A stretch of 64,000 nucleotides of DNA, from the IMG/VR virus record IMGVR_UViG_3300020204_000005; one strand, given 5' to 3'. The number at the start of each line of letters is the position of its first letter. The first letter of the stretch is position 1. The notes beneath the pieces are model-generated. The model saw only the letters and a program-made list of their open reading frames with translations. It ran no database searches and was not told the DNA's origin. Source of the DNA: a virus. Position numbers and translations under genes: made by a program. This document shows, one piece after another, positions 21,029 through 60,089 of the stretch.

Positions 21029-21030
21029 TT

Positions 21031-32915: not shown

Positions 32916-32916
32916 A

Positions 32917-33186
32917 TTAATATTTATTTAATAATTTTTTATTTAAAAGACTATTAAAAGCGATTTTAAACGGTATAGATAACTCATTATTTTTAATACC
33001 TAACGTTTCATCGACTTCCTCAATTTCGGTTAATAACACATCTGTTAATAATTTAACCATATCGTATTTAACAACACTAATATGGTTTTCTGCAGAACCC
33101 GAATAATCTTTCCGGGGTTTTGCGTTTGTATACTTCTCAATAGCATCTAAATCAAGATAGTAGTGTTCATTTAAAATTTTTAACAT
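32917..33186 (-). CDS. hypothetical protein
   Basis: ORF track. Confidence 0.65.
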   Translation of the reverse strand: MLKILNEHYYLDLDAIEKYTNAKPRKDYSGSAENHISVVKYDMVKLLTDVLLTEIEEVDETLGIKNNELSIPFKIAFNSLLNKKLLNKY

Positions 33187-34506: not shown

Positions 34507-34578
34507 ATTTTTAATTATATTTATAAAAATATATTTTATTTTTAACAAATGTGAATACGAAAATTATTTACGTATATA

Positions 34579-38711: not shown

Positions 38712-38714
38712 AAC

Positions 38715-39932
38715 TTATTTAATTAGTGATTTGTAAAATTCTTTTCGCAAAGTAGTAACATTTTGCAAATTGTATTTGTCTTTAACAGTTTCATATAGTC
38801 TTTCACCCATATCTGTCATTAGGTTTGGATTTTGTAATAATTTTTTAATGAATTTATGCCAATCACTATGATTTCTATTTTCATTAACTAACATAGCATT
38901 ACCATCAACAAACTCACCATTTTTTAGACAATGTTTAAGGTCTATAGTGTAAGGTCCTATTTCGGAAGCGATTAATGCCTTTTTATAAAATCCCGCCTCA
39001 ATCACTTTTAATTGAGATTTCATTCTATTGAATATGTGGTTTTTGATTGGAGCTAAAGATATGTCAAACTTAGAGTAGTTAGAGGCATATTGTGTTACAG
39101 GTCTTGTCCATACTCTAACATAAGGTAATGACTTATCAGTCATATAATTTTTTTCCTCATACAACGTTAGATATTTTTTATAGTCTTCATCGATAATACT
39201 ATATTTATCTGTAAATATTTCTTCATAACGAGCCCAAACAGTTTCTTCAGGTCTAATTGGTCTTTGTTTTTTTTCTCCCGTTTGTTTGTTAATTTCTGTT
39301 ATATGACCTCTAGTATCGAAACCACATAAAACATATTGTATGTTATTTTTTAATGAACTGTTTTTTGTTACAAATCCATCTAATAACTTTAAATCATGTA
39401 AGTGGGAAGAACCACCTAACCAACCAACTCTAATTCTATCAGATTCTAATGTTGGTTCTTTAAACTGAGGTTCATTTGGGTCCACTGCATTTGGTAAAAC
39501 AATTACGTTTTTGTTAAATTTACGTATTTCATTTGCAAATATTTCAGTAGTTGTTGTAACATAACTAGCTTCTTTTAGATTAGCAACAATTTTTTCATGT
39601 ATTTTTTCTTGTAAAATAATACTATGGATAGGATGTTCTTTTGTCGGTAACCAATAATCATCAATATCAACTACTACAACAATACCCATTGATTTTAAAT
39701 TTCTAATTATCGCAGGACAGGAGTCGTAATTTTGACCAATGTTTCTATGTACATGGACTATTTGGTACTTCTTCCAATAATTGGGGTCACTAATTCTTGG
39801 TTCATAATCGATATCGACATGAAAATCATCATTATACATGTTTTGTAACATTATATGGGGGTCAATCGACCTAAATTTACCAACACCTGTACGGTCTGAT
39901 GGTAATACTAAAACTTTAATTTTTTCTGACAT
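38715..39932 (-). CDS. Glycosyltransferase, GT-B type
   Basis: DIDDY, RVGWLGGSSHLHDL, DISLAP...FNRMKSQLKVIEAG; start moved to MSEKIK (39932). Confidence 0.78.
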   Translation of the reverse strand: MSEKIKVLVLPSDRTGVGKFRSIDPHIMLQNMYNDDFHVDIDYEPRISDPNYWKKYQIVHVHRNIGQNYDSCPAIIRNLKSMGIVVVVDIDDYWLPTKEHPIHSIILQEKIHEKIVANLKEASYVTTTTEIFANEIRKFNKNVIVLPNAVDPNEPQFKEPTLESDRIRVGWLGGSSHLHDLKLLDGFVTKNSSLKNNIQYVLCGFDTRGHITEINKQTGEKKQRPIRPEETVWARYEEIFTDKYSIIDEDYKKYLTLYEEKNYMTDKSLPYVRVWTRPVTQYASNYSKFDISLAPIKNHIFNRMKSQLKVIEAGFYKKALIASEIGPYTIDLKHCLKNGEFVDGNAMLVNENRNHSDWHKFIKKLLQNPNLMTDMGERLYETVKDKYNLQNVTTLRKEFYKSLIK

Positions 39933-39999
39933 ATTTTTATATATAACATAGAAAATATAGTCAGATAAACAGACATTATCAATATAATAATAAATAAAA

Positions 40000-40021
40000 A
40001 ACCCCATCGATTGACGGGGTT
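40000..40021 (-). terminator. Terminator-like hairpin
   Basis: AACCCC...GGGGTT with an A-run on the left, just past the stop of ORF 40026..40619. Confidence 0.55.
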
Positions 40022-42669: not shown

Positions 42670-45519
42670 ATGTCGAGTCAAAATATAAATCAATATGTAA
42701 GGAACAACCTATACCCAAAACTTTATTTGGATAGTTATGATATGTCCCTAACATCTGATGAAACAGATTTTAATCAGGAGGTTGTTTTCTCACCTTATTT
42801 AATCGCTCAAACATATGGTAATAAACTACCAATCAATATTGACATAAATAATATTGATACCGTCCAAAATTTAAATTTAACATATAAAAATTATAACAAT
42901 AACAATATTTTTGTTTCTCAAAATTATTACAACCCTGATAAATTAGATTTGAAATGTTTTACTGCAGAAACTTCATGTGATATAGGTTTAACAGGAATTG
43001 ATAACGGTTTAGTAAATAAAATGACAGGTCAAACCATAACATTTACTAAAGGTTTATTTTCAGATTTTTTAAAATTTGATAGGTTAAGTTTTGATAGAAG
43101 ATTCAAAATGTTCCAAGTAACGGGGTATACAAATACTCCAAATGTAAGATTTTCTGGTTTTAATAATACCGTATTATATGAAGTCGTTAGTAAAAACGAC
43201 CCTGTAATCGGTAGATACCACGAATTATATGGAGGGTTTTATCAAGGGTTTTATAAACTTCATGGTTATGATTATGAAATTTTTCCTGAAAGGATGACCA
43301 AAGGGTGGTCGGTCGAAATGATTCTTAAACCGAGATTATTTAATGAATATGTACTAGGACCTGGCGAGACAACATTAAATGGGATATACCCAAATAATAA
43401 AAATACATTTTTTTATTTTGGTACTAGAGCCGAGAATAAGTTTTATCATCATGCGGATGGTACTCCTGATTGTTTTACAGGTTATACTCGAGTAACAACT
43501 CCTTTAACGGGTTTAAGTACATGCGCATGTTGTGATTTAACAATAAAGAATAGTAGATGTATATATGTATACCCGCCAAGGTCTAAGGATGGTAAACATG
43601 ACCCTAGAGTTAATTATGGTTGTGATACATGTGGTGGTTTAAAGACAAAACAGTTATCATGCGGGTGTGGTTGCGACAAACCACAATGTGAGAATTGTGG
43701 GTGGGAATGTCAAACACACATTTGCCCAACAACACCCACCCCAACCCCAACTCAAAGTCCTACACCAACCCCAACAAGTAATAATTGTATTGTTACCCCT
43801 ACTTGTACACCTACATGTACTAAGTGTGATACTTGCGATGACTGTTTAGATTGTAAACCTGAAGGTTTTTCTTCTATTGAGGACACTTGTGAAAAGGACC
43901 CATTATACGACTCAATGTCAAATGCTTTTTCATTAAGATTATGTGGAGACCCTAAAAACCCAAAAATAGGTGTTAGATTTTTAAGATTTACAGGTGATTG
44001 TACAACTTCAGGAGAGTGTTCTACTAGTGGAATCACATACTCAACGGGATATACTATAACTGATATATGTACACCACCAATATACCCAAGATGTGAAAAA
44101 GAAAATCCTGCTTGGTTAAATGAAGAACATTGGTTCCAAGTTAATGTTGTTTGGGAAAGATATACTTGGTTCGATTACTGTGATTTAAAATATCGTGGTG
44201 GATTAGGTGATATAACTAAACAAGTTTATTTAGAATCTTTAGCAAATAATACAACCTCATTAATTAGTACTCCTTACACAAAAGAAAATGGTAAAGTTGC
44301 TGAAAAAATGGATATCATCAATTTAAATGAAAAATGGTTAATTGAGGGTAAAATGAGAAAGGGTAGATTAAAAATCTACATTAATGGTAAGATATTTCAC
44401 ACTATCGAGGATTTTGAGGAAATTATACCAAGAGCTCTAAATACTGATAAAGAAAAACAGGTTGGTGTACCATTTAATATCTCATGGGGCGGAGGAACAC
44501 AAGGGCTTAGAGAAAACTTAACCTTCTCCTCAACAACAATTCCTAATGGACCCTATATCCAAGACCCTGAGTGTTTTCCAACTAATGATTTAACGGCAAC
44601 AACATTCAATGGGTTAACTACTAATATTTTAATCGAACAAAATTTTGCAGGTACTTTTGATGGAGGAATCTCACAATTTAGAATGTATGTAGAACCATTA
44701 TCGGCACCTGAAGTTAAACACAATTTTAAATTACTTGTAAGTAAATTTAATATGTTTAATCCAGATTGTCCTAATTGTTCAACAACAATATGTAAACCTG
44801 ACGACATTACTTATATACTTTCTGCAGATACTCCAACCACAACAACTGAAGACCCATTTGGTAACGAACCTTTAGGTAGATTATATATTGAGGATTTAAG
44901 AGATAAAAATTATTTGATTGAAAGGAAGTTAAAATTAACTCCTAATAAACCAACTACAATGTATTGGGAGTCCGATGAATGGTGGGGAGACCAAGGAAAA
45001 ACTTCTGAATGTGTTGGTTACGCTTGGGCTCATTGGGTCGAGGACGGGCCAATCAAACATAGCGGTATCGCTCCAATAGTTCACCCAACAATTATTTATA
45101 AAGAAGCTCAAAAAATAGATGAGTGGCCTGGTGAAAATTATAAAGGAACTTCTGTTAGAGCGGGGGCCAAATATTTAAAGAGTATTGGTAGAATTGAGCA
45201 ATATTTATGGACTTATGATATAAACGTTTTAATATCGACTGTATTAACTAAAGGACCTGTTGTTGTCGGTACTAATTGGTACTCATCGATGAATAGACCT
45301 AATATTAATGGTTTAATGAAAGTTTCGGGTTTCAAGATTGGAGGTCATGCCTATGTTATCAATGGTGTTGATACAATTAAAAAACAATTTAGAATTAAAA
45401 ATAGTTGGGGTCGTTCTTGGGGTAAACAAGGACATGCCTTTATTTCTTTTAATGATATGAATAAACTTATTAGACAAAACGGTGAAGTTTGTTTAGCTAT
45501 AGAAAAAAGGTCTAACTAA
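42670..45519 (+). CDS. Putative virion protein: LamG/concanavalin-like domain interrupted by a Cys-rich/PT segment, fused to a papain-family (C1) peptidase
   Basis: [40 protein letters not shown] (LamG-like); [23 protein letters not shown] (C1 triad). Confidence 0.72.
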
Positions 45520-46082
45520 TGAGTGAAATTATAGTAATAAAAAGTATAAATTACGATGGTGAATTGGCGAATGTGTTATTTAAACCATCGGGGTCTAACA
45601 AAGTCATTAATTTGGGTAATATTACATTACCTTTTGAATTCGACCCTTCTTTATTAGTTCCTCCTTTAAAACCATATGGTGATTACACTATTTTCCTTGT
45701 TGAGGAAAGTTGTACTTATTATTTAAACGTTCCTGCACCAACTCCAACTCCAACACCTAGTAACACAACTACAAAAACCCCCACACCAACACCAACTCCT
45801 ACCCAAACACCAACTCAAACTATTGACCCTTGTAAATTTATTACACCAACACCAACTAAAAGTGTTACACCAACTAAAACACCTAAATCATCTCCAACAC
45901 CTACACCAAGTTGGGACCCGTGTATAACACCATTCCCAACTAAAACTCCAACACCTACTAATACTCAAACGCCTACATTAACTCCAACACCAACACTTAT
46001 TACTTATTATATCACGAGTGAATCGGGTAATCCTATAATTTCTGAAGATAATAATTATATTATTCCTGAAGATTGTGAATAA
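45519..46082 (+). CDS. Small PT-rich putative virion protein
   Basis: Short beta domain followed by about 90 aa of T/P repeat; TAATG coupling to the upstream gene. Confidence 0.7.
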
Positions 46083-46102
46083 CGATAAATATATATTATT
46101 AA

Positions 46103-49100
46103 ATGATTCAATCAATAGAAATAACTGGTGCGTCAGGTACAGGTCCTTACGACATTGAGGTATGTGATATCACATTATCATTGTGTGTACCAATTGCGTC
46201 ATCAGTTCCTATACCACCAACCTATCAATTTACATTACCTAACGTTTTAAGTGGTGCAACTGAAGTTGTTGTAAGATTAATTGATTCTGAGGGATGTCCT
46301 TGTTTACAGGTATGCCCATGTATTTTACCTAGCCAAACGCCAACATTAACCCCTACAATAACACCAACAATGACAGTTAATTGTAATTGTCTTGAGTTTA
46401 ATAATGAGGATGTTATTGAACATACAATTTCTTTTATTGATTGTAGTGGTAATAATATAGACACTGTTATTTCACCTGAAACGGTATTAACTTTTTGTGG
46501 TAAAAGTCCTTCAGTTAGTAGCCCTTCAGTTATTGTTACAATAGGGGATTTTTGTGTTGGAGGAGTGTGTCCTCCCCCACCACCGACATTAACTCCTACA
46601 CAAACACCGACTAACACCTCAACACCAACAATTACACCAACAAAAACATTGGTACCTTTAGTGGGATATTTCCAATATTGTTGTGACCCGTCAAATATTG
46701 TTATTATCTCAACAATTCCTCTTAGTTATTATCCATTGAGTGGAGTTTATTATGTTGAAAGTGCAGGTTTTAATGGTTGTGTTACTTCAATACCTCCAAC
46801 ATTTTCACCTAATGCGTATGTTTACATCGATGCAATATCGTTTACTTCATGTTCTGATTGTGAATCAACTTATCCATGTCCTTCACCAACCCCTACTGTA
46901 ACACCTACCATCACCCCAACGGAAACCGTTACACCCACTGTAACATCGACCCCAACTACAACGCCAACAGTTACACCAACGGAAACCGTTACACCCACTG
47001 TAACATCGACCCCAACTACAACGCCAACAGTTACACCAACCGAAACTGTCACTCCAACAGTTACTATAACACCTACTAATACCGTCACTCCAACAGTTAC
47101 TAAAACATCAACTCCTACTATTACTCCCACTAAAACTTCAACTGTTACCCCAACTGTAACTAGAACCCAAACGATTACACCAACTAATACGGTAAGACCA
47201 ACTAATACTCCTACCAATACTATAACTCCAACAAAAACTCAAACACCAACTATTACACCAACACACACAATTACTCAGACTAATACGGTAACGCCAACTA
47301 ACACTGTTACCCCAACTAATACCATTACCCCAACAATTACAAGAACTCCAACTAATACCATAACACCAACTAATACACCTACTAATACTGTAACTCCGAC
47401 TAATACTATAACTCCAACTAATACTGTAACTCCGACTATAACACCTACTAATACCATTACCCCAACAATTACAAGAACTCCAACTAATACCATAACACCA
47501 ACTAATACACCTACTAATACTGTAACTCCGACTAATACTATAACTCCAACTAATACTGTAACTCCGACTATAACACCTACTAATACTGTAACTCCAACTA
47601 ATACTATAACTCCAACTAATACTGTAACTCCATCTATCACGCCTACTAAAACTGTAACACCTACTAATACTATTACTCCAACTATTTCATTAACACCAAC
47701 AAGAACTCAAACTCCAACTATAACACCTACTAATACTGTAACTCCAACTAATACTGTAACTCCATCTAATACTGTAACTCCGACTATAACACCTACTAAT
47801 ACTATTACTCCAACTATTTCATTAACACCAACAAGAACTCAAACTCCGACTATAACACCTACTAATACTATTACTCCAACTAATACTATAACTCCAACTA
47901 ATACTGTAACTCCGACTATAACACCTACTAATACTATTACTCCAACTAATACTGTAACACCTACTAATACTGTAACTCCAACTAATACTGTAACTCCAAC
48001 TAATACACCTACTAATACTGTAACTCCGACTATAACACAAACACCAACTAATACTGTCACCCCTACAGTTACTCCAACTATTTCATTAACACCAACAAGA
48101 ACTCAAACTCCAACTATAACACCTACTAACACTGTAACTCCAACTAATACTGTAACTCCGACTATAACACCTACTAATACTGTAACTCCAACTAATACTG
48201 TAACTCCGACTATAACACCTACTAATACTGTAACTCCGACTAATACTGTAACTCCAACTAATACTGTAACTCCGACTATAACACCTACTAATACTATTAC
48301 TCCAACTAATACTGTAACTCCAACTATAACACCTACTAATACTATTACTCCAACTAATACTGTAACTCCATCTATCACGCCTACTAAAACTGTAACACCT
48401 ACTAACACTGTAACTCCAACTAATACTGTAACTCCAACTAATACTATAACTCCAACTAATACTCAAACTCCATCTATCACACCTACTAAAACTGTAACTC
48501 CAACTAATACCATAACACCAACTAATACTGTAACTCCGACTAATACTCAAACTCCATCTATCACGCCTACTAAAACTGTAACTCCAACTATAACACAAAC
48601 ACCAAGTAATACTGTAACTCCGACTATAACACCTACTAATACCATAACACCAACAAGAACTCAAACTCCAACTATAACACCTACTAATACTATTACTCCA
48701 ACTATTTCATTAACACCAACAAGAACTCAAACTCCAACTATAACACAAACACCAACTAATACACCTACTAATACTGTAACTCCGACTAATACTGTAACTC
48801 CGACTAATACTATAACTCCATCTATCACGCCTACTAAAACTGTAACACCTACTAATACTATTACTCCAACTAATACACCTACTAATACTGTAACTCCAAC
48901 TAATACTGTAACTCCATCTATCACGCCTACTAAAACTGTAACACCTACTAATACTATTACTCCAACTAATACTGTAACTCCAACTAATACACCTACTAAT
49001 ACTGTAACTCCAACTAATACTGTAACTCCATCTATCACGCCTACTAAAACTGTAACACCTACTAATACTATTACTCCAACTAATACTGTAACTCCGACTA

Positions 49101-50893
49101 TAACACCTACTAATACCATAACACCAACTAATACTCAAACTCCATCTATCACGCCTACTAAAACTGTAACACCTACTAATACTATTACTCCAACTAATAC
49201 TGTAACTCCGACTATAACACCTACTAATACTGTAACTCCAACTAATACTGTAACTCCAACTATAACACCTACTAATACTGTAACTCCAACTAATACTATA
49301 ACTCCAACTAATACTCAAACTCCATCTATCACACCTACTAAAACTGTAACTCCAACTATTTCATTAACACCAACAAGAACTCAAACTCCGACTATAACAC
49401 CTACTAATACTATTACTCCAACTAATACTATTACTCCAACTAATACCATAACACCAACTATAACACAAACACCAACTAATACAGTTACTCCAACTATTTC
49501 ATTAACACCAACAAGAACTCAAACTCCAACTATAACACCTACTAATACTATTACTCCAACTATTTCATTAACGCCAACAAGAACAGTTACACCATCTATA
49601 ACTCCAACTAATACTATAACGCCAACAAGAACAGTTACACCATCTATAACGCCAACAAGAACAGTTACACCATCTATTACACCTACAGTTACACCAACAA
49701 CACCATATAGGTTTTATTTAATGAGTGATTGTTGTACAAATACTAAAACTAATGTAATGAGTTTACCGACCGCATTTGCATCTGTAGGAAATACTTTTGT
49801 TTCTACAGGAGGAGTTTGTTATTCGGTATCGGCAATCGTTGAGGGACCTGCAAATGTTACTTGGAATGGGGGTACTATATATAGTGGGGGTACTCCATCT
49901 GAAAATTGTACTAGATGTACCGCGGCCAATATTTGCCCTTCACCTACCCCAACGACTACAAAAACACCGACACCTACCCCAACAATTACAAGAACACCAA
50001 CAGTAACACCAACAAGAACTCAAACTCCAACTATTTCATTAACACCAACAAGAACTCAAACTCCGACTATAACACCTACTAATACTATAACTCCAACTAA
50101 TACTGTAACTCCAAGTAATACTGTAACTCCGACTATAACACCTACTAATACTATTACTCCAACTATTTCATTAACACCAACAAGAACTCAAACTCCAACT
50201 ATAACACCTACTAATACTATTACTCCAACTATTTCATTAACACCAACTAGAACTGTAACACCTACAGTAACTCCAAGTATTTCTGTTTCACCAACTAGAA
50301 CTGTAACACCTACAGTAACTCCAAGTATTTCTGTTTCACCAACTAGAACTGTAACACCTACAGTAACTCCAAGTATTTCTGTTTCACCAACTAGAACTGT
50401 AACACCTACAGTAACTCCAAGTATTTCTGTTTCACCAACTAGAACTGTAACACCTACAGTAACTCCAAGTATTTCTGTTTCACCAACTAGAACTGTAACA
50501 CCTACAGTAACTCCTACCATTTCATTAACGCCGACTAGAACTGTAACACCTACAGTAACTCCTACCATTTCATTAACACCAACGAGAACTCAAACCCCAA
50601 CTATAACCCCTACACCAACAATGACACCAACACCAACACAGTGTGGGGATGCTTCATGTTGTCAAATAGAATTATGTTTTGGGCCTGATTGTAGGGGGGC
50701 TTGTGGTTGTAATCAAACAGACACATTCTATCTACATTTACCGTGTGGTGGTAATTGTAAATTATCAAATGCGGATGGTATATTTGAGGACCCGAGGTGT
50801 ACAACTCCGGCAAATAGAAAGTACTATTCAGATGGGAATGATTGTTACTATTGGGATGGAATAAGTTCATTATCTTACGAAGGCCCTTGTTAA
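46103..50893 (+). CDS. Mucin-like 1596-aa Thr/Pro-repeat protein with interspersed Cys-rich domains
   Basis: Long (TPTNTV/I)n tracts about 46883-49704 and 49940-50640, separated and flanked by Cys-rich domains; no signal peptide. Confidence 0.85.
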   Translation: MIQSIEITGASGTGPYDIEVCDITLSLCVPIASSVPIPPTYQFTLPNVLSGATEVVVRLIDSEGCPCLQVCPCILPSQTPTLTPTITPTMTVNCNCLEFNNEDVIEHTISFIDCSGNNIDTVISPETVLTFCGKSPSVSSPSVIVTIGDFCVGGVCPPPPPTLTPTQTPTNTSTPTITPTKTLVPLVGYFQYCCDPSNIVIISTIPLSYYPLSGVYYVESAGFNGCVTSIPPTFSPNAYVYIDAISFTSCSDCESTYPCPSPTPTVTPTITPTETVTPTVTSTPTTTPTVTPTETVTPTVTSTPTTTPTVTPTETVTPTVTITPTNTVTPTVTKTSTPTITPTKTSTVTPTVTRTQTITPTNTVRPTNTPTNTITPTKTQTPTITPTHTITQTNTVTPTNTVTPTNTITPTITRTPTNTITPTNTPTNTVTPTNTITPTNTVTPTITPTNTITPTITRTPTNTITPTNTPTNTVTPTNTITPTNTVTPTITPTNTVTPTNTITPTNTVTPSITPTKTVTPTNTITPTISLTPTRTQTPTITPTNTVTPTNTVTPSNTVTPTITPTNTITPTISLTPTRTQTPTITPTNTITPTNTITPTNTVTPTITPTNTITPTNTVTPTNTVTPTNTVTPTNTPTNTVTPTITQTPTNTVTPTVTPTISLTPTRTQTPTITPTNTVTPTNTVTPTITPTNTVTPTNTVTPTITPTNTVTPTNTVTPTNTVTPTITPTNTITPTNTVTPTITPTNTITPTNTVTPSITPTKTVTPTNTVTPTNTVTPTNTITPTNTQTPSITPTKTVTPTNTITPTNTVTPTNTQTPSITPTKTVTPTITQTPSNTVTPTITPTNTITPTRTQTPTITPTNTITPTISLTPTRTQTPTITQTPTNTPTNTVTPTNTVTPTNTITPSITPTKTVTPTNTITPTNTPTNTVTPTNTVTPSITPTKTVTPTNTITPTNTVTPTNTPTNTVTPTNTVTPSITPTKTVTPTNTITPTNTVTPTITPTNTITPTNTQTPSITPTKTVTPTNTITPTNTVTPTITPTNTVTPTNTVTPTITPTNTVTPTNTITPTNTQTPSITPTKTVTPTISLTPTRTQTPTITPTNTITPTNTITPTNTITPTITQTPTNTVTPTISLTPTRTQTPTITPTNTITPTISLTPTRTVTPSITPTNTITPTRTVTPSITPTRTVTPSITPTVTPTTPYRFYLMSDCCTNTKTNVMSLPTAFASVGNTFVSTGGVCYSVSAIVEGPANVTWNGGTIYSGGTPSENCTRCTAANICPSPTPTTTKTPTPTPTITRTPTVTPTRTQTPTISLTPTRTQTPTITPTNTITPTNTVTPSNTVTPTITPTNTITPTISLTPTRTQTPTITPTNTITPTISLTPTRTVTPTVTPSISVSPTRTVTPTVTPSISVSPTRTVTPTVTPSISVSPTRTVTPTVTPSISVSPTRTVTPTVTPSISVSPTRTVTPTVTPTISLTPTRTVTPTVTPTISLTPTRTQTPTITPTPTMTPTPTQCGDASCCQIELCFGPDCRGACGCNQTDTFYLHLPCGGNCKLSNADGIFEDPRCTTPANRKYYSDGNDCYYWDGISSLSYEGPC
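46921..47040 (+). repeat. 2 x 60-bp perfect tandem repeat
   Basis: Lines 46921-46980 and 46981-47040 are identical. Confidence 0.9.
50246..50485 (+). repeat. 5 x 48-bp perfect tandem repeat (TRTVTPTVTPSISVSP)
   Basis: ACTAGAACTGTAACACCTACAGTAACTCCAAGTATTTCTGTTTCACCA repeated five times. Confidence 0.88.
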
Positions 50894-50898
50894 TAAAA

Positions 50899-50923
50899 AA
50901 CCCCCACTTTTAAGGTGAGGGTT
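50899..50923. terminator. Imperfect terminator-like hairpin after the mucin-like gene
   Basis: AACCCCCACTT-TTA-AGGTGAGGGTT. Confidence 0.5.
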
Positions 50924-50979
50924 AATAATTATACTATTTTCTTTATCTTTTTTTTAAGTATTTTTTCAGTAAAAAAGAT

Positions 50980-52227
50980 ATGAAAATTTTTGTTCAAATT
51001 GCCTCATATAGAGACCCCCAATTAATACCAACAATAAAAAACATGTTTGAAAATGCTAAAAGACCAAAAAATTTGGTTTTAAGTATTTGTAGACAATATC
51101 ACCCTGAAGATGGTTTCGATAATCTTGATGAATATAAAAGTGATAAAAGATTTAGAATTATTGATGTTTTGTATTCAGAGTCTAAAGGAGTTTGTTGGGC
51201 GAGAAATCTAACACAACAACAATATCAAGGTGAAGATTATACATTACAAATCGACTCTCACATGAGGTTTGAGAAAGATTGGGATGATACTCTAATTAAG
51301 ATGATTAAACAACTCCAAAAGAAAGGGTTTGATAAACCTCTGTTAACAGGTTATGTTTCATCATTTGACCCAGATAACGACCCCGCAGGTAGGGTTCAGG
51401 AACCATGGAGAATGGTATTTGATAGATTTATACCTGAAGGTGCGGTTTTCTTTTTACCTGAAACAATACCTGGCTGGAGGGAAATGGAAGAACCTGTTAC
51501 GGCAAGATTTTATTCTGCTCACTTTGCATTTACGTTAGGTAAATTTAGTGAAGAGGTTCAACATGACCCCGAGTTTTACTTCCATGGAGAAGAGATTTCA
51601 ATAGCCGCAAGAGCATATACTCATGGTTATGATTTATTCCATCCTCATAAAGTTGTGATTTGGCATGAATACACTCGTAAAGGAAGAACAAAACAATGGG
51701 ACGATGATAAAGATTGGGCAACAAAAAATAATTTATCACATTCTAAAAATAGACAATTATTCGGTATGGATGGGGAAGAAGTTTTATTAGATTTTAGTAA
51801 ATACGGATTTGGTACCGAAAGAACTCTAAAAGATTATGAAATCTATTCAGGTTTAAGATTCTCAAGAAGAGCGGTCCAACAATATACATTAGATAAACAT
51901 TACCCACCAAACCCAACAATATATAATACTGATGAAGAATGGGAGAGTAGCTTTGCATCAATCTTCAAACATTGTATTGATATTGGGTTTACTCAAGTAC
52001 CTGAAAAAGATTATGAGTTTTGGGTGGTTGCGTTTCATGATGAAAAGGATGAAACAATTTTCCGAAAAGATGCCGACATCAATGAAATTAATGGTATGAT
52101 GAATGACCCTGATGGATATTGTAAAGTGTGGAGAGAATTCCAAACATCTCATAAACCAAAATATTGGGTTGTATGGCCTTATAGTGTATCAAAAGGATGG
52201 TGTGAAAGATTAACGGGTAATTTGTAA
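50980..52227 (+). CDS. GT60-family polypeptide alpha-GlcNAc transferase (Gnt1/TcOGNT-like)
   Basis: IFVQIASYRD, SKGVCWAR, LQIDSHMRF (DSH motif), WD..LI, FHGEEISIAARAYTHGYDLFHP, WHEY. Confidence 0.85.
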   Translation: MKIFVQIASYRDPQLIPTIKNMFENAKRPKNLVLSICRQYHPEDGFDNLDEYKSDKRFRIIDVLYSESKGVCWARNLTQQQYQGEDYTLQIDSHMRFEKDWDDTLIKMIKQLQKKGFDKPLLTGYVSSFDPDNDPAGRVQEPWRMVFDRFIPEGAVFFLPETIPGWREMEEPVTARFYSAHFAFTLGKFSEEVQHDPEFYFHGEEISIAARAYTHGYDLFHPHKVVIWHEYTRKGRTKQWDDDKDWATKNNLSHSKNRQLFGMDGEEVLLDFSKYGFGTERTLKDYEIYSGLRFSRRAVQQYTLDKHYPPNPTIYNTDEEWESSFASIFKHCIDIGFTQVPEKDYEFWVVAFHDEKDETIFRKDADINEINGMMNDPDGYCKVWREFQTSHKPKYWVVWPYSVSKGWCERLTGNL

Positions 52228-53163
52228 ATGAAAAATATTAGAGTCCATAATCCCTGTAATGAACATACAAGATATTATAGAAATTATAATTACTTTTGGG
52301 ATGAGTTTACAAACTATTTAAAAGAATTCTTTAATGTTGAAGAAAACCGATACTTTGAGAATGCTCATAAAGAAAGATTTCCTGTTAATTTGAAAAAAGG
52401 AATCTCGGGTAATTTTTTATTATTAGAGTGTGAATATGTTATTGAAAATTTAGAAAGTGGTGAATTTGTTATTATGTCTGTTTCAGATGATTTATCTCAT
52501 GCAACTTTAAATGAAAAGTCAAACCCATTTTTAAAAAAGGTATTAATCTCACAATTTTTACCAAAAAAAATATTAGACCATGTTGGAGAACATATGTATA
52601 AATATTCCCCGTGGACATACTTCCAAGCTTCAATGGATGACTTATCAATATATTACAATAAAAGACAAGAAAAGGAATTTTTAAATAATACTTTATATTT
52701 TAAAGGGACTTCTTTAGAAGATAGAAAAATCCTGAGTTTTATTGACAAAAATATTATTACCGATTTTAATGTTATCACACCATCTAATTATTTTGATGAT
52801 TTGATATCCCATAAAATTGCTTTGTCAGTTGATGGTAGAGGTGAATTTTGTTATAGGGATGTTGAGTGTTTTGGGATAGGGGTACCCATTATTAGATATG
52901 AATATGTATCAAAATTTATTTCCCCGTTAATCCCTAACTACCATTATATATCATTACCAAGACCATCTGATATGGGTTTATATAGGTTAGGTAATGAAAC
53001 ACACGCCAAATTATTGGAAAATAGATACCATGAAGTTATAAACGATAACGAATTCTTATCATTCATCTCAAGAAACGCTAAAGAATATTATGATATTAAT
53101 TTTTCACTTAACTCTAAAATAAAAAACACATTTAATTTATTAAATTTACAAGATTGGGTATGA
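52228..53163 (+). CDS. Putative GT-B glycosyltransferase (exostosin/CgeB-like C-terminus)
   Basis: KIALSVDGRGEFCYRDVECFGIGVPII...LIPNYHYI. Confidence 0.5.
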   Translation: MKNIRVHNPCNEHTRYYRNYNYFWDEFTNYLKEFFNVEENRYFENAHKERFPVNLKKGISGNFLLLECEYVIENLESGEFVIMSVSDDLSHATLNEKSNPFLKKVLISQFLPKKILDHVGEHMYKYSPWTYFQASMDDLSIYYNKRQEKEFLNNTLYFKGTSLEDRKILSFIDKNIITDFNVITPSNYFDDLISHKIALSVDGRGEFCYRDVECFGIGVPIIRYEYVSKFISPLIPNYHYISLPRPSDMGLYRLGNETHAKLLENRYHEVINDNEFLSFISRNAKEYYDINFSLNSKIKNTFNLLNLQDWV

Positions 53164-54035
53164 TACACGAAAATATATTATATGGATACGATTACGATTC
53201 AAATAAAAATGTTCTAATAGGTAGAGAAGAAATTAAAGATTACGGTTTCTTTTCAACTTTTACATTGATGATTTCATCAATAATGGTTGTCTATAAAAAA
53301 TTTAAAAAAACCCCAAAATCTATAGATGGTAAATTCTTATTAAGAAAATTAAAAAAAGATTTAGATATTGATATGTATCAATATTTTTTTCATATTGACG
53401 ACAGTATTGAAATAAATTTTGACGAAGAAATTCCCGTCCCTTTTAGTCCTGATGACCAACACACAATATATTCTGAAAAGTATATCAAATACTATTTACC
53501 ATTTTTTAAAAAGTATTTTAATGTTAACACAAACATTACGGAAAAAATTTCCTTTTTAAAAGAAAAATATGGTATTGATGAGGATAACTCAATTTCGGTT
53601 ATTTACCGTGATTCTGATAAATGGACAGATTTTGGTGGGTTTAATTATATTTCCGCTGGAGGATATTTTAGAAAATGTAAGGAGATTATCGAATTAGAGA
53701 AAATAAGACCAAGAGTGATTATTCAATCTGAAAATAATGGAGTTATTAAAACATTTCAAGAGGCATTCGGTTCTGTATTCTTCACTGAAACTTCTTTAGG
53801 TAATTCTTCCGAAATTTACCCACCAATACCAATAAACGATGAAATTAGATTAGAATGGTCTGAATATTATGTTGCCTCTTTATGGATATTATCAAAATGT
53901 AAACATGTTATAACATACACTGGTAATAGTTCTTTTTTCATCTATTTAAATCGAGGGACTACAAACAATTTTACACAAGAAATAACTTTTACAAAAGATT
54001 ATAATGAGTTTTTTGTAACTAATAATAATATTTAA
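53154..54035 (+). CDS. NodZ/GT23-like fucosyltransferase-fold protein
   Basis: YGFFS, ISVIYRDSDK (cf. GVHIR.TDK), ILSKCKHVITYTGNSSFF. Confidence 0.55.
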   Translation: MGMIHENILYGYDYDSNKNVLIGREEIKDYGFFSTFTLMISSIMVVYKKFKKTPKSIDGKFLLRKLKKDLDIDMYQYFFHIDDSIEINFDEEIPVPFSPDDQHTIYSEKYIKYYLPFFKKYFNVNTNITEKISFLKEKYGIDEDNSISVIYRDSDKWTDFGGFNYISAGGYFRKCKEIIELEKIRPRVIIQSENNGVIKTFQEAFGSVFFTETSLGNSSEIYPPIPINDEIRLEWSEYYVASLWILSKCKHVITYTGNSSFFIYLNRGTTNNFTQEITFTKDYNEFFVTNNNI

Positions 54036-54041
54036 AAAACT

Positions 54042-55802
54042 ATGAAAATATCAATTGGTGACATCGTAGATAGATACTCTATCTGTAAATTAAAAAGTGA
54101 ACGACTAAATTTAGACCTGTCAGATGAGATAAGTCAATTAGAATCTGAAATTGTTAATTATAAAGACATTACACAATATGTCGGGGACTTATATGAAGTA
54201 AACGGTTTAATATGGGATTTAGAGTCTGATATACGTAAGGGTAATGAAGAAATTTTAGGTTTAGAGGAGATTGGCCGAAGAGCTTTAAAAATTAGAGATT
54301 TTAACAATTTAAGAGTAAAAATTAAAAATGAAGTTAATTCAAAATATGGGGAAGGTTTTATTGAGGTTAAAATGAATCATGGTAGTGAAAAGGAAAAATC
54401 TGTAATTATAACTTTAACAACAGTACCTGAAAGATTAGACAATCTAAAAGAAGATGGTTTAAAATTAGTATTAAAATCATTATGTGAACAACTTGATGAT
54501 GATTATGAGGTTCATTTTAATATACCCGAAAAATCCATGGTAACTAATAAACAATACAATATACCGTCTTGGATTAGCGAATATAAATTAAAATACCCTC
54601 ATCTAAAAATTTTCAGACCCGAAGATTTAGGACCACCAACCAAATTTGTACCTACACTTGTGAGAGTCAAAAATCCTGAAACAATATTAATTGTTGTCGA
54701 TGATGATTTAGTTTATCATAATGAAATGGTATCTGAACATAGAAAATATCAAAATGAACTTTTAGATAGTGTGATAGGTTACGATGGAAGAGGTTGTGAT
54801 GTTTTTTTACACAATAATGACATTAGGGATAGTTGGATACTGTGTGTTACTGAAATTAGAAAAACACATAGTTTACAACATTATAAATCAGTCTCATATA
54901 AGAAAAAATTATTTAAAGATGATTTCTTTACCGACTATTTAGGGTCGACTTTTTCAGACGATGTTTTGGTTTCGTTATATTTCAAAAATGAGGGTATACC
55001 GATGTATGTTGTTCCCTACGAAAAAGAAAACCATCTTTTTGAGACCAGAGAACTATGGGATGAAAACCAAGGTGTAACAACATTTCCTGTTTTAAGGTAC
55101 GCGTCTAGTGTTGAGGACACGGGATGTAATCATCCTGAGATGTTAGCAAAACAACCAAAATTTTTTATACCTAATATAAAAACAACTAATAAACATATAT
55201 CTCAGACTAACTTTACAACTGATAAAATTAATCATGGGTATATGGAAGTTTACCAACCTTTATTTACAAGTATGAAAAATGTGAATAAAGTACTTGAGAT
55301 AGGAATATATAAAGGGGAAAGTTTAGAACTTCTTTCTCATTTTTTTAAAGATAGTATAGTTTATGGTATTGATATAACTGATTGTTCTCATTTAAATTCT
55401 GATAAAATTAAAACATTTATTTGTAACCAAGAAAATATCGATGAATTAGAAGATTTCATCTCAAAAGAAGGTGGTAATTTTGATTTAATTATTGACGATG
55501 GCGGACATACAATGAAACAACAACAAATTTCTTTGGGGGTATTATTTAAACACTTAAAGGATGGAGGGGTTTATATTTTAGAAAATTTACACACTTCAGT
55601 TAGAGAAGGTTATAGGGATGAGAATGATATTATAACAACTTTGGATATGTTAAATAAGTTAAATGATGGTGGTGAATTAATTACCAATCATATAACAGAA
55701 GAAAATAAGGAATATATTAAACAAAACGTAGACTCAATTAAAATATGGACAAGGACTCCTGATTTTAATGAAAGTGTAACATCAATAATTAAGAAAAAGT
55801 AA
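54042..55802 (+). CDS. DUF6165-like + GT-A glycosyltransferase + sugar O-methyltransferase fusion
   Basis: ISIGDIVD...NGLIWDLESDIR; TLTTVPERL, DLGPPTK, VDDD; TDK..HGY, VLEIGI, IIDDGGH. Confidence 0.68.
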   Translation: MKISIGDIVDRYSICKLKSERLNLDLSDEISQLESEIVNYKDITQYVGDLYEVNGLIWDLESDIRKGNEEILGLEEIGRRALKIRDFNNLRVKIKNEVNSKYGEGFIEVKMNHGSEKEKSVIITLTTVPERLDNLKEDGLKLVLKSLCEQLDDDYEVHFNIPEKSMVTNKQYNIPSWISEYKLKYPHLKIFRPEDLGPPTKFVPTLVRVKNPETILIVVDDDLVYHNEMVSEHRKYQNELLDSVIGYDGRGCDVFLHNNDIRDSWILCVTEIRKTHSLQHYKSVSYKKKLFKDDFFTDYLGSTFSDDVLVSLYFKNEGIPMYVVPYEKENHLFETRELWDENQGVTTFPVLRYASSVEDTGCNHPEMLAKQPKFFIPNIKTTNKHISQTNFTTDKINHGYMEVYQPLFTSMKNVNKVLEIGIYKGESLELLSHFFKDSIVYGIDITDCSHLNSDKIKTFICNQENIDELEDFISKEGGNFDLIIDDGGHTMKQQQISLGVLFKHLKDGGVYILENLHTSVREGYRDENDIITTLDMLNKLNDGGELITNHITEENKEYIKQNVDSIKIWTRTPDFNESVTSIIKKK

Positions 55803-55803
55803 T

Positions 55804-58182
55804 ATGGATAATTTTTTTGATAAGTCATTACATTTTTTAGGTAAAGTAGAAAATAATATCACCGCATTAAACATTGGTTCGATGGATGGTGTAATGTTTG
55901 ATGAAATGATTGGATACACTAATATGTATAACTTTAGTGTTTTATATGTAGAACCCATACCTTATCTTTTTGATAGATTACAAGAAAACATTAAATCTGA
56001 AAATGCTTTGTTTGAAAATAGTGCAATATCAGATTATAATGGTTCTATTGAAATGGTGACTATCGATAGGGAAGTAATTGATAGTGGCTTAGTCCATAGT
56101 TGTTTTTACGGTATGAGTGCGGTTTATCCACCTAAAAATGGTTTAGGTAGTGAGTTTGATAGACTCACAGTTGAGAAATATGGTAAATTAGTAAAGGTTC
56201 CATGTATTACATTTGAGACTTTATTGGTAAAACATAAACTTAATAACTTTGACATTCTCAAGATAGATGCTGAAGGTCATGATTATAAAATTTTTAAACA
56301 AATTGATTTAAAAAAATATACACCTAAAGTTATAAGATTAGAATGGATTAATTTAGAAGAATCAGAACAAAATGATATTATAAATATTTTTAATGAAAAT
56401 AATTATGTTTATGAAATTTCTGACCAAGATATTGTAGGTATACCTAAAAATTTTTATGATGAACTTAAAAATCAATATACTGAACCCATTAATTTAAACA
56501 ATGGACCAAACATTACTTTAGTTACGGGGTTATGGGATTTAGGTAGAAATAATTTAACCGAAGGATGGTCAAGGTCATACGAAAATCATTATTTAACAAA
56601 GTTTGATGAATTATTAAAAATCGAGAACAATTTAATAATTTTTGGTGATTCAGAATTAGAAAAATTTGTTTGGGAAAGAAGAAGTCACAATAACACCCAA
56701 TTTATAAACAGAGATTTAGATTGGTTTAGAAACAATGAATTCTACTACAAAATTCAAAAAATAAGAACGAATCCTGAATGGTATAATCAATCAGGTTGGA
56801 TTCCAGATTCTACACAAGCAAAATTAGAAATGTATAACCCTCTTGTTATGGGTAAAATGTTTTTATTACACGACGCAAAAATTCTCGACAAGTTTAATTC
56901 CGATTACATGTTTTGGATTGATGCGGGTTTAACAAATACGGTAAACCAAGGATATTTTACTCACGATAAAGTTATCAATAAATTACCAAAACTAACCAAT
57001 AAATTTACATTCATCACTTTCCCATATGAAACTAATTCTGAAATTCATGGTTTTACATTTGATAAGATATGTGAATTTGCAGGTGATAAAGTAAACAAAG
57101 TTGCTAGAGGAGGATTTTTTGGGGGTCCTAAAGAAACCATAACCGAGTCTAATAATTTATATTACCAATTACTTTCTCAAACATTATCTAATGGATATAT
57201 GGGTACTGAAGAAAGTATATTTACAATTATGATATACAAATACCCACAATTATTTAATTATAGTGAGATTGAGGGTAACGGATTAGTATGGTTATTTTTT
57301 GAGAATTTGAAAAAAGAAACATTAAATCTTAAAAGTGAAAAATCAAATAACGAAATTATAAAAATAAAAGATTTGAGTAAAGTAGGTTTATATGTTATTG
57401 GGTTTAATAGTCCAAAACAATTCGAGACTTTAATTTTTTCAATGAAAAAATACGACCAAAATTTCATTGACAAACCTAAGAAATTTTTATTAGACAACTC
57501 AACTGATTTATCAACAACTGAAAAATATTTGTATTTGTGTAAGGAGTATGGTTTTGAACATATTAAAAAAGATAATCTTGGTATTTGTGGTGGTCGACAA
57601 TATATTGCTGAACATTTTGAAAATACCGATTTAGAATATATGTTCTTTTTCGAGGACGATATGTTCTTTTATCCTAAGAAAGGTGAATTATGTCGAAACG
57701 GATTTAATAGATATGTGAGTGATTTATATACCAAATCATTAAAGATTATTGATAGTGAAAACTTAGATTTTTTAAAATTGAATTTTAGTGAATTCTACGG
57801 AGACAACTCTACACAGTGGAGTTGGTACAATGTTCCTCAAACGGTAAGAGAAGAATTATGGCCAGATAATAAAAAATTACCTGTACAAGGATTAGACCCA
57901 AATGCACCAAGAACTAAATTCGAATCAATTAAGTGTATAGACGGAATACCGTACTCAATTGGTGAAGTTTATTATTGTAATTGGCCACAAATAGTCTCCA
58001 AAAAAGGAAATTATAAAATGTTTTTAGAAACTAAATGGGGTCATCCATTTGAGCAGACGTGGATGAGTTACATTCATCAAGAAACGGTCAAAGGTAAAAT
58101 TAAATCAGGTATATTATTATTAACTCCAACAGAACATGATAGATTTGACCATTACGATGGTTCATTAAGAAAAGAAAGTTAA
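55804..58182 (+). CDS. FkbM-type methyltransferase + HtrL/YibB-like glycosyltransferase + GT2-like fusion
   Basis: NIGSMDG, VEP, KIDAEGHD (FkbM); TLVTGLWDLGR, WIDAG, GGFFGG, TEESIF (HtrL); FFEDDMF (GT-A). Confidence 0.72.
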   Translation: MDNFFDKSLHFLGKVENNITALNIGSMDGVMFDEMIGYTNMYNFSVLYVEPIPYLFDRLQENIKSENALFENSAISDYNGSIEMVTIDREVIDSGLVHSCFYGMSAVYPPKNGLGSEFDRLTVEKYGKLVKVPCITFETLLVKHKLNNFDILKIDAEGHDYKIFKQIDLKKYTPKVIRLEWINLEESEQNDIINIFNENNYVYEISDQDIVGIPKNFYDELKNQYTEPINLNNGPNITLVTGLWDLGRNNLTEGWSRSYENHYLTKFDELLKIENNLIIFGDSELEKFVWERRSHNNTQFINRDLDWFRNNEFYYKIQKIRTNPEWYNQSGWIPDSTQAKLEMYNPLVMGKMFLLHDAKILDKFNSDYMFWIDAGLTNTVNQGYFTHDKVINKLPKLTNKFTFITFPYETNSEIHGFTFDKICEFAGDKVNKVARGGFFGGPKETITESNNLYYQLLSQTLSNGYMGTEESIFTIMIYKYPQLFNYSEIEGNGLVWLFFENLKKETLNLKSEKSNNEIIKIKDLSKVGLYVIGFNSPKQFETLIFSMKKYDQNFIDKPKKFLLDNSTDLSTTEKYLYLCKEYGFEHIKKDNLGICGGRQYIAEHFENTDLEYMFFFEDDMFFYPKKGELCRNGFNRYVSDLYTKSLKIIDSENLDFLKLNFSEFYGDNSTQWSWYNVPQTVREELWPDNKKLPVQGLDPNAPRTKFESIKCIDGIPYSIGEVYYCNWPQIVSKKGNYKMFLETKWGHPFEQTWMSYIHQETVKGKIKSGILLLTPTEHDRFDHYDGSLRKES

Positions 58183-58229: not shown

Positions 58230-60089
58230 ATGGAATTCTTTATTAAGAAAAATGCAACATTACCCATATTAAAATTACAGGTAGTAAAGGACGGTAGAAG
58301 TGATTATGATAACTTTATGAAGACCATAGAGTTGTCCGCCATCTTCTTTTCTATGGTTGATGTTGAATCAGGTATTCCTAAAATTTCATCGAGACCTGCA
58401 GGATTTGTTGAGAAGGAGTTTATTGAACCGAATGCAGAACCCGAGTACTACATATATTACCAATTCCAAAATAGAGATACTAATAAAGTAGGTAGATATG
58501 AAGGTCAATTTATGTTAAGAACCGATGATGGTGTCTTAATATTACCTATCAGAGAAAAATTATTTATTAATATACAAGAATCATTTATTGCGAATGATTT
58601 ACCTTATGAAAGTTGTTATACTTCGGAATTCCCTTGTTGTGTTAATCATCCTTATATAACAACCACAACCACAACCACAACACCTTGCCCTAGTTGTCCT
58701 ACATGCCCTGAGCCAACACCTACACCAATAACCACAACTACAACAACTATAGAACCAATAACCACAACTACAACAACTATAGAACCAATAACCACAACTA
58801 CAACAACTATAGAACCAATAACCACAACTACAACAACATTTCCACTATCTGTTATTTTAGATGTTAATATTAATCCAGGGTCAATAATTATTGATTATAA
58901 TTTGACATCAAATCAAGTTTATTATGAAGAAATAAGTATGAGTTTTACTCATATATTAGGTACAACAGAAACGTCAATAACAATTGTTACAGGTGTAACA
59001 ATTCCTATTGGTTATACGACAGGGAATACCCAAGTAATTATAAATGAAGATTTTAACATATTAACTAAAAACGATTCTTTTGGTAATTTCATAGTCAACC
59101 CTCCATCATTAGATTGGGTCGTGTATGAAAATTATCCGACACCTACACCAACTGTAACCCCAACTTTGACACCAACACCTACCAAAACAGTTACTCCGAC
59201 AATTAGTGTTACACCTACACTTACAACCACACCGACTGCCACTTTGACGCCAACAGTTACACCAACCTTAACACCTACAAACACACCTACTAATACACCA
59301 ACATTAACTCCTACTGAAACACCTACTAATACTCCGACTAACACTCCTACAGAAACGCCTACTTTAACACCAACGAATACCCCTACTATTACCCCAACAC
59401 CATCACCATTACCCCAACTACCAATATTGGTCGATAACTGGGATACTTTATTGAACTACTCTATAACGGGAGTGACCTTAAATTCCGTGACACCAACAAA
59501 TACCGGTGGGTCAAACTTCCCTCTTGATGGTTATCCTAATGTGAATTATGAAGGTACGTTTGTATCTACCGAATCTAATCCATTAACAATTCAAGTAGGG
59601 TATAATAGCTCAACATTTGTTCCTGGTATGTATATACAGGTGAGTCACTCAAGTATTGGTTACGCTGTTGAAAATATTTTATCCACGTCTGGAGTTGCAA
59701 CGTTTGGTCCGTACAATTTATATTTTGGAAGTCAACTCTTAATTGAGTTGTTTTCCCCATCAATACTTTTTAAAATGGTAAATAACTCCACAAATAGAAC
59801 TGTTACAAGTGCTTCATATACTATTGGAGGACCAACAGTAAGTTTAGATGTGGGTTCATTCCCAATAAACTCAACAAATTCGGCGGGTTCTTTCACACAT
59901 CCTTCTAGTACAGGTGTGGCACCTGATGCAATAAATTACACTATTGGCGGTACAGGTAATTACACATACGTTGTACTCCGTAATGGAGTTGGAGTGAAAA
60001 GTCAAATAAATACAAATATTAACAATATAATTGTTACTGGTGTGACTTTCTCATCAAGTGATGAAATTATATTAGAAATGTATAACTAA
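58230..60089 (+). CDS. Putative virion fibre: BppU-like N-terminal anchor + Thr/Pro stalks + C-terminal beta domains
   Basis: TLPILKL...FFSM...[15 protein letters not shown] resembles baseplate-upper N-domains; [10 protein letters not shown] repeats and a PT tract. Confidence 0.6.
58725..58837 (+). repeat. About 3.8 x 30-bp tandem repeat ([10 protein letters not shown])
   Basis: CCAATAACCACAACTACAACAACTATAGAA repeated. Confidence 0.85.

Follow-up and report, generated by a model that had tools for sequence, protein, structure and literature searches.

A soluble GT60-type glycosyltransferase of a large tailed phage, probably initiating O-glycosylation of mucin-like threonine/proline-tract proteins

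We analysed a 64,000-nucleotide (nt) stretch of viral DNA (IMG/VR record IMGVR_UViG_3300020204_000005; the whole stretch is referred to here as the window), and in particular an open reading frame (ORF) at positions 50980-52227, which encodes a glycosyltransferase of the GT60 type. Mucin-type O-glycosylation is treated as a process of the eukaryotic secretory pathway, and to our knowledge glycosylation of phage-particle proteins has been encountered in a few cases only. We consider it probable that the ORF encodes a soluble GT60-type enzyme which, in the infected cell, initiates O-glycosylation (probably with N-acetylglucosamine (GlcNAc) on threonine or serine) of phage proteins carrying threonine/proline (T/P) tracts. 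The enzyme has the following features.

50980-52227, plus strand: GT60-like (PF11397) soluble GT-A glycosyltransferase of 415 amino acids (aa), from Pfam, PHROG, an AlphaFold2 model and PDB matches
51253-51261, plus strand: D92-S93-H94, a DxH motif, putatively metal-binding
51586-51666, plus strand: GEE...R...HG block (residues 203-216), then H229, from conservation among homologues
51940-52224, plus strand: C-terminal beta-sandwich domain (residues 321-415) beyond the Pfam model, from a separate fold prediction

The original prediction had placed the ORF product in GT60 and had proposed a profile search as a check. This search bears out the assignment: the protein matches PF11397 ("GlcNAc") with an E-value of 2.9e-73 and 247.8 bits (cut-off 21), in two stretches which reach profile position 350 of 352, and phrog_24687 aligns with it over the full length (E 7e-170). 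The Pfam scan of the enzyme gave no match to PF00535 (Glycos_transf_2) or to a ricin domain. All of the motifs noted at the outset are present in the translation (ASYRD at residues 8-12, GVCWAR at 70-75, DSH at 92-94 and GEEI..AAR..THG, in full GEEISIAARAYTHG, at 203-216), and they are not due to chance, because an alignment of 37 homologues, extending down to 37% identity, shows no variation at D92, H94, E204, E205, G216 and H229. G203 and R211 are conserved in at least 90% of the same alignment.

The kinship with GT27, the family of the mucin-initiating polypeptide N-acetylgalactosamine (GalNAc)-transferases (ppGalNAc-T), is mirrored in the predicted structure. When the AlphaFold2 model built from the 37-homologue alignment (predicted local distance difference test, pLDDT, 95.7) was compared with the PDB using Foldseek, the first 36 ranked matches were all ppGalNAc-T (25 entries among the matches listed, ranks 1-34). 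A second structure aligner gave Z-scores of 19.2-22.7 for ppGalNAc-T10, -T2, -T4 and others (root-mean-square deviation 3.3-3.8, 258-285 residues aligned), the top match reaching Z 22.7 over 278 residues, whereas other GT-A enzymes did not exceed 17.8, i.e. they scored 4-5 Z units lower. The structural neighbours found in the ESM Atlas were PF11397 clusters in 100% of cases (TM-score 0.83-0.88). By profile match and modelled fold, the enzyme is a true PF11397/GT60-type member, with a fold nearest to the GT27 catalytic domain. Judging from the fold match and from general knowledge of GT27, D92 and H94 would correspond to the Mn2+ ligands of that family, with H229 as the probable third metal ligand, and we take the GEE...R...HG block to resemble, in general outline, the Gal/GalNAc-T motif of GT27.

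The enzyme has neither a signal peptide nor a membrane segment, as had been originally stated, since its best 19-residue Kyte-Doolittle mean is 0.88 and, in the model, strand 1 of the GT-A fold begins right at its N-terminus. At the other end of the protein, the Pfam match stops near residue 294. The C-terminal 95 residues, predicted alone, form a beta-sandwich (pLDDT 92.6) whose best PDB matches are of the fibronectin type III (FN3)/immunoglobulin (Ig)-like type at a Z-score of only 7.3, which reflects a common arrangement and is too weak to provide a family name; according to this model, the domain is clearly no ricin lectin. It has been kept in the phage homologues and in many bacterial ones (with R42, D44, P80 and W87 of the domain invariant), and is missing from the forms of Burkholderiales.

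The evidence for the nature of the acceptor comes from gene neighbourhoods, beginning with the gene immediately upstream.

46103-50893, plus strand: Thr/Pro-repeat (mucin-like) protein of 1,596 aa, candidate acceptor, from composition and gene order

The stop codon of this gene (TAA, 50891-50893) and the ATG of the enzyme at 50980 are separated by 86 nt, the distance given in the original prediction. The 1,596-aa protein contains 595 Thr (37%), 261 Pro (16%) and 197 TPT units; Thr makes up 40-48% of its two repeat regions and Pro 16-20% of the repeats, which are interrupted by five small non-repeat modules containing its 36 Cys residues. It has no Pfam family match and no hydrophobic leader, and a hydropathy scan revealed no signal or membrane segment in any of the T/P proteins of the window.

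Relatives of the enzyme are encoded by 282 stretches in IMG/VR, and we kept the best 80 of these 282 (77-95% identical to the enzyme of the window), which were dereplicated to 54 loci; a locus search with a 40%-identical representative yielded one locus only. The gene immediately upstream of GT60 in the related loci lies on the same strand, mostly 50-90 nt away, and encodes a protein of ~200 to 3,289 aa. In 57 of the 80 loci this gene begins with the 80-residue N-terminal module found in the 1,596-aa protein; judged by sequence, the upstream genes therefore form a single family, whose head is conserved and whose repeat body is hypervariable. The order which recurs in the 80 loci is T/P protein, GT60, variable enzymes, a gene of the FkbM/HtrL type and a T-rich protein. 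With density defined as at least 60% T/P/S in a 100-residue window, a T/P/S-dense gene occurs immediately upstream of GT60 in 24 of the 54 dereplicated loci, compared with 37 of 620 (6%) other genes there (odds ratio 12.6).

The same association was found in bacteria. Thirty genomes with GT60 on a long contig were examined by comparing the 17-kb flanks of the GT60 gene with 40 equally long regions from other parts of these genomes, a dense tract being defined as Ser/Thr+Pro of at least 70% in 40 residues, with each class at 25% or more. A dense Ser/Thr+Pro gene was present in 9 of the 30 GT60 flanks and in none of the 40 controls (Fisher p 2e-4), and the nine positive flanks belong to Verrucomicrobiota, Actinomycetota, Gammaproteobacteria, Bacteroidota and Burkholderiales. 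This bacterial association, which is independent of phage synteny, constitutes the strongest computational argument that the family acts on Ser/Thr-Pro tracts.

Ten loci of Burkholderiales (Ralstonia, Achromobacter, Paraburkholderia, Trinickia and Paraherbaspirillum) provide a specific case, in which a type VI secretion VgrG gene is located 4-5 kb from the GT60-like gene. The C-termini of these VgrG proteins are long hypervariable repeats, namely (TP)n with up to ~75 copies, (SEEPPP)n, (TEPPP)n, (EEPPQT)n or (TPEP)n, whose constant feature is a Ser or Thr next to Pro. In four other bacterial loci the neighbour is a small protein whose twin-arginine-like signal precedes T/P or S/T/P repeats and which, if glycosylated in the cytoplasm, would need to be exported in modified form. 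Two examples of the latter, both from Bacteroidota, also have a C-terminal sorting-type domain. Our literature searches found no paper on glycosylated VgrG tails.

VgrG with repeat tail, all minus strand: L129, 10267-13131; L144, 13049-15520; L160, 13075-15564; L141, 13086-15710; L151, 13087-16215; L152, 13120-15735
VgrG with repeat tail, further loci: L126, L132, L134, L105
Twin-arginine-like-signal repeat proteins: L130, 9563-10243, plus strand; L142, 4819-5457, plus strand; L087, 6504-7649, minus strand; L090, 5997-7751, minus strand

These loci belong to a family with a wide range. An exhaustive search of cluster representatives gave 4,640 clusters at E <=0.001 (960 of them below 1e-30), and in a word-indexed search the number of 90%-identity clusters exceeded 7,400, many of them labelled just "glycosyltransferase involved in cell wall biosynthesis". 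Relatives are encoded by more than 560 stretches of bacterial species genomes, and isolates possessing them include Sphingobacterium, Verrucomicrobium, Niabella, Ralstonia, Cupriavidus and Paraburkholderia; in the viral structure libraries, uncultured tailed phages account for many entries named "Glycosyltransferase, GlcNAc", and giant viruses contribute members as well. As a description of range, the term "eukaryote-like" used in the original prediction is thus misleading: PF11397, which has been characterised in eukaryotes, is largely prokaryotic and viral in sequence space, and the family is very common in large uncultured phages. Fusions recorded in the ESM Atlas join PF11397 to both halves of a GT7 galactosyltransferase (an all-viral cluster), to S-adenosylmethionine (SAM) methyltransferase domains (Pseudomonadota) and to PF13640 (green algae), and a fusion of GT60 to T/P tracts was found in 1 of 150 representatives.

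The link between the enzyme and Ser/Thr-Pro tracts suggested by the sequences is statistical, and the claim that the "likely substrate" is encoded next door stands in part. The association with Ser/Thr-Pro genes is non-random in phages and, independently, in bacteria. The 1,596-aa protein, although by far the largest candidate acceptor, is neither the sole one nor a constant neighbour, since a scan of the window, in which the densest T/P/S stretch was scored for each protein, revealed seven proteins with T/P tracts: the 1,596-aa, 949-aa, 187-aa and 619-aa proteins and three smaller ones encoded at 19532-21534.

42670-46082, plus strand: two genes with T/P linkers upstream of the 1,596-aa gene, encoding proteins of 949 aa (with a C-terminal papain-like peptidase) and 187 aa (densest T/P/S windows 0.65 and 0.72)
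42670-45519, plus strand: the 949-aa protein, with internal Cys-rich and TP-linker segments and with its last ~200 residues matching a peptidase of the papain family (phrog_16701, E 3.3e-56; PF00112, weak)
58230-60089, plus strand: 619-aa protein with poly-Thr/TP tracts, last gene of the block (densest T/P/S window 0.78)
20573-21028, plus strand: 151-aa protein with a peptidoglycan-binding-like segment followed by ~10 TTP/TPT units, beside head genes
50899-50923, no strand assigned: hairpin with a nine-pair stem just past the stop codon of the 1,596-aa gene, from the fold of the spacer

The 949-aa and 187-aa genes are syntenic in loci L001, L004, L027 and L038 and in other related loci, and the 151-aa protein, encoded far from the cassette, is another possible acceptor. 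The hairpin scored as terminator-like on the minus strand only, and a role as a strong terminator was not supported; the fold of the 90-nt spacer is unexceptional (z -1.26).

Several observations weigh against the glycosylation of Thr in T/P-tract proteins by the enzyme. A dense T/P gene lies immediately upstream in only 44% of the dereplicated related loci, and the 54 loci are related, so the counts do not represent independent events. T/P tracts are common flexible linkers, which could adjoin the cassette for structural reasons alone. In the Xanthomonas jumbo phage XacN1, ORF334, which is 48% identical to our enzyme over 99% of its length, is placed amid replication genes, followed by a carbamoyltransferase, with no adjoining T/P gene. 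Searches of PDB sequences, whether with the protein itself or with a profile of 37 sequences, gave no GT60 relative of solved structure that could serve to check the acceptor groove. A prolyl hydroxylase, which would open the way to a different acceptor, may be provided by the host, and homologues of thymidylate synthase (ThyA) are encoded in three of five related contigs, so the chemistry of DNA hypermodification may exist in these phages. A complex prediction that paired the enzyme with a segment of the repeat protein (residues 400-440) scored 0.00, which bears neither way.

With regard to the donor sugar, UDP-GlcNAc is plentiful in the bacterial cytoplasm. GT7 enzymes act on terminal GlcNAc, and the viral PF11397-GT7 fusion therefore fits a GlcNAc product. 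All of the characterised GT60 enzymes use UDP-GlcNAc (PMC8724618, PMC6939170), and by analogy with them we consider this compound the likeliest donor, with a confidence somewhat above even. Among the alternatives, the one that survives best is that the enzyme is an O-glycosyltransferase of T/P tracts which has a GT60/GT27-like mechanism and does not share the defining activity of GT60, its donor being UDP-glucose, UDP-GalNAc or a rarer bacterial sugar. It is, by identity, a distant relative of the Pfam seed family, UDP-GalNAc is the donor of the enzymes with the nearest solved folds, the glycan cassettes of bacteria and phages often employ unusual sugars, and the varying set of enzymes and methyltransferases encoded downstream points to diverse glycans. 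Nevertheless, we regard this alternative as unlikely, given the uniform donor of the characterised enzymes, the fusion with GT7 and the fact that no gene for sugar-nucleotide synthesis was seen in the cassette in the Pfam and PHROG scans.

A little less likely again is a non-protein acceptor, i.e. the bases of phage DNA (hypermodified against restriction) or a glycan or lipid of the host envelope, the T/P genes being in this case unrelated structural neighbours. Most characterised phage glycosyltransferases do modify DNA or the host O-antigen (PMC12619734), the XacN1 homologue is surrounded by DNA polymerase, RNase H and Nudix genes, and the window contains many other glycosyltransferases and methyltransferases (31029-40007). 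However, the ThyA homologues of the related contigs lie more than 100 kb from GT60, there is no membrane segment in the enzyme that would suit lipid-linked acceptors, and the enrichment of Ser/Thr-Pro genes beside GT60 holds in bacteria, without a phage context. Moreover, peptide-bound ppGalNAc-T structures are clearly the best fold match, and the characterised GT60 and GT27 enzymes all take polypeptide acceptors (PMC8724618, PMC6939170). Phage DNA glycosyltransferases act on hydroxymethyl- or hydroxy-pyrimidines, and their genes usually accompany those for synthesis of the modified base; the fold matches listed include no such enzyme.

The question of Thr versus hydroxyproline (Hyp) had been raised in the original prediction, which favoured Thr on the grounds that no prolyl hydroxylase was visible in the window. 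This argument can now be extended. The ORFs of at least 100 aa scanned in the window gave no Pfam match to a 2-oxoglutarate (2OG)-Fe(II) oxygenase, and no candidate for PF13640 (the Skp1/collagen-type prolyl hydroxylases) was found in the five related contigs (rated 100, 91, 82, 73 and 43% complete), whereas control genomes did give matches. Since no prolyl hydroxylase was found in either place, the sequences make Thr the likelier acceptor. A Gnt1-like enzyme, acting on the Pro of TPT after hydroxylation by the host or by an unrecognised phage hydroxylase, would agree with the soluble, cytoplasmic nature of the phage protein, with the Pro content of the repeats and with the existence of Hyp-specific members of GT60 (PMC6939170), but it appears very improbable, because, in addition to the negative searches, the eukaryotic Hyp-type forms are fused to the hydroxylase (the green-algal cluster has this PF13640-PF11397 layout) a fusion seen in no phage or bacterial cluster among those listed, Thr outnumbers Pro by a factor of 2-3 in the tracts, and the bacterial SEEPPP and TEPPP repeats keep Ser/Thr as the constant feature.

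The initiation of O-glycosylation on Thr-rich tracts has parallels in several known systems. GT60 comprises polypeptide alpha-GlcNAc-transferases which initiate mucin-type glycans in Dictyostelium and Trypanosoma cruzi, and which are related to GT27 and lack its ricin-like domain (PMC8724618). The phage enzyme has in common with these protist proteins PF11397, a GT27-related GT-A fold, the DxH motif and the absence of a ricin-type lectin domain, and the presumed acceptors are alike, i.e. dense Thr tracts with Pro (PMC8724618). In contrast, the protist enzymes are Golgi membrane proteins of the secretory pathway, whereas the phage enzyme is soluble and, judging from its sequence, would act in the cytoplasm of a bacterium, its target proteins being set free by lysis. 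A further difference is its extra C-terminal domain of the FN3/Ig-like type. The cytoplasmic Gnt1 of Dictyostelium and Toxoplasma (also GT60 in CAZy), which modifies a hydroxyproline of Skp1, resembles the phage enzyme in family, solubility and location, and, as a further likeness, it starts a glycan to which additional soluble transferases then add step by step (PMC6939170). Gnt1 requires a prolyl 4-hydroxylase and acts on one Hyp of one protein, unlike the phage system, with no hydroxylase found in the five contigs and with candidate acceptors containing hundreds of Thr residues. The GT27 enzymes of animals offer the closest solved structures (Z 19-23, with ~275 catalytic-domain residues aligned), the same metal-binding logic and the same type of acceptor, Thr/Ser near Pro, as far as the phage acceptor may be judged. 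The phage enzyme differs from them in its low identity (11-14%), in lacking a ricin lectin and a membrane anchor, and in its expected donor, which by analogy would be UDP-GlcNAc instead of UDP-GalNAc. A TPTNTVTPTITPT-type peptide may serve as a putative model acceptor; as a lead only, the PTVT repeats of Dictyostelium PsA reportedly carry GlcNAc.

Among viruses, mycobacteriophages (Freeman et al. 2023, as described in PMC12619734) and giant viruses such as chloroviruses encode transferases which glycosylate their own structural proteins in the host cytoplasm. In these cases the modified proteins are the capsid and tail-tube C-termini or a capsid protein, and the transferases belong to other families, which distinguishes these systems from a GT60-type initiator with long mucin-like repeats as candidate targets. 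The jumbo phage XacN1 is closer to our case. At least two virion glycoproteins were detected in this phage, and its authors propose that the phage's two glycosyltransferases, ORF328 and ORF334, make them (PMC5852040); ORF334 was left unassigned to GT60. We observed that a 3,313-aa ORF of XacN1, beside the baseplate wedge and ~9 kb from ORF334, has PTPTPT linkers near its C-terminus. In our literature searches no description was found of GT60/PF11397 enzymes in phages, nor of mucin-like phage substrates (jumbo phages included), and one preprint just includes GT60 in a list of viral CAZy hits. While virus-encoded glycosylation of virions is already known, the combination of a GT60-type initiator and mucin-like candidate targets, as suggested here by sequence comparison, would be new.

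The enzyme is followed by a cassette of genes that may act on the first sugar.

52228-54035, plus strand: two genes after the enzyme, encoding 311 aa (52228-53163) and 293 aa (53154-54035), probable extending glycosyltransferases, from language-model neighbours
54042-58182, plus strand: two multidomain enzymes of 586 aa (DUF6165-like and methyltransferase) and 792 aa (FkbM methyltransferase and HtrL/YibB-like), from Pfam and PHROG

The 311-aa and 293-aa genes have no Pfam or PHROG match; the language-model look-alikes of their products, which are leads only, include clusters of the Glyco_trans_1_2/GT90 and NodZ/FUT8 types. These two genes are the variable part of the cassette, being kept in just 14 and 2 of the 80 related loci, respectively. 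The 792-aa FkbM/HtrL-type gene accompanies GT60 in 78 of the 80 loci, and a poly-Thr protein equivalent to the 619-aa one is found downstream of the cassette in 68. The variability of the middle genes across phages is as expected if the glycan differs between lineages.

We propose the following mechanism. The enzyme would be a soluble, cytoplasmic and metal-dependent transferase, which passes the sugar of a UDP-sugar, probably GlcNAc, to the hydroxyls of Thr (and Ser) in Thr/Pro tracts. By far its largest target would be the 1,596-aa product of the neighbouring gene, and the remaining proteins with T/P tracts encoded in this block would be modified as well. The variable glycosyltransferases and the methyltransferase fusions encoded downstream would then extend and cap the sugar, giving rise to glycosylated stalks or fibres, possibly parts of the virion, which would leave the cell at lysis.

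The wider setting of the cassette is that of a tailed phage. The window (G+C content ~30%) is, judged by its gene content, a piece of a tailed phage whose morphogenetic core is T4-like, because it encodes a large terminase, a portal protein, a prohead protease of the T4 gp21 type and a major head protein, besides which it has genes for a multidomain lysin and for a DNA polymerase of family B.

3-1730, minus strand: FtsH-like ATP-dependent protease family (phage), truncated at the window edge (phrog_4871, E 3.5e-215, a very strong match)
2351-4690, plus strand: 779-aa lysin-like multidomain protein with a nucleotidyltransferase-like N-terminus, an M23 peptidase, a peptidoglycan-binding domain and a GH19 chitinase-like end

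A megablast search with positions 44000-56000 gave no match to cultured phages. The host is probably a member of Bacteroidota; this is hinted, not proven, by the closest copies of the enzyme gene in species-level genome bins (63-83% identity), because they are located on contigs labelled Bacteroidetes, Saprospiraceae, Chitinophagia and Cytophagaceae. The lineage is jumbo-class, since the related IMG/VR contigs span 214-322 kb, with one rated as 100% complete. A second set of sugar genes was observed on the opposite strand (31029-40007, minus strand), comprising a GT2 enzyme, a two-domain GT2-like protein (Glyco_tranf_2_5 and Glycos_transf_2), a methyltransferase with a nucleotide-sugar transferase-like part and a phrog_7162 glycosyltransferase, and genes for PhoH, dUTPase and a 3'-5' exonuclease are scattered among them. 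In the 322-kb related phage (L165/L166/L169, contig G001, 5332-7607, minus strand) the thymidylate-synthase homologue matches its profile in pieces (positions 1-139, 137-230 and 223-265), which are ~1 kb apart at one junction; this could be an intron or an inserted element.

The findings may extend beyond a single phage lineage. It is possible, although we rate the chance at somewhat less than even, that a widespread and hitherto undescribed form of cytoplasmic mucin-type O-glycosylation exists in prokaryotes and large phages, in which a GT60-type initiator acts on long Ser/Thr-Pro tracts: in phages on giant mucin-like stalks or fibres, with a variable cassette for extension and methyl-capping of the glycan, and in bacteria on the tails of VgrG spikes and on repeat proteins with twin-arginine signals. 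If such a system exists, the phage would assemble a true mucin-like glycoprotein inside a bacterial cell. The occurrence of GT60 near VgrG genes with repeat tails points to a modification of type VI secretion spikes that has so far escaped notice. If the enzyme does glycosylate Thr/Pro tracts, it would provide a soluble and easily expressed initiator for making mucin-like glycoproteins in bacteria. In that case, mucin-like proteins with heavy glycosylation would also be made, in the cytoplasm of bacteria, by a group of phages that is very common in freshwater, which would bear on phage adsorption, on sticking to surfaces and on the evasion of recognition.

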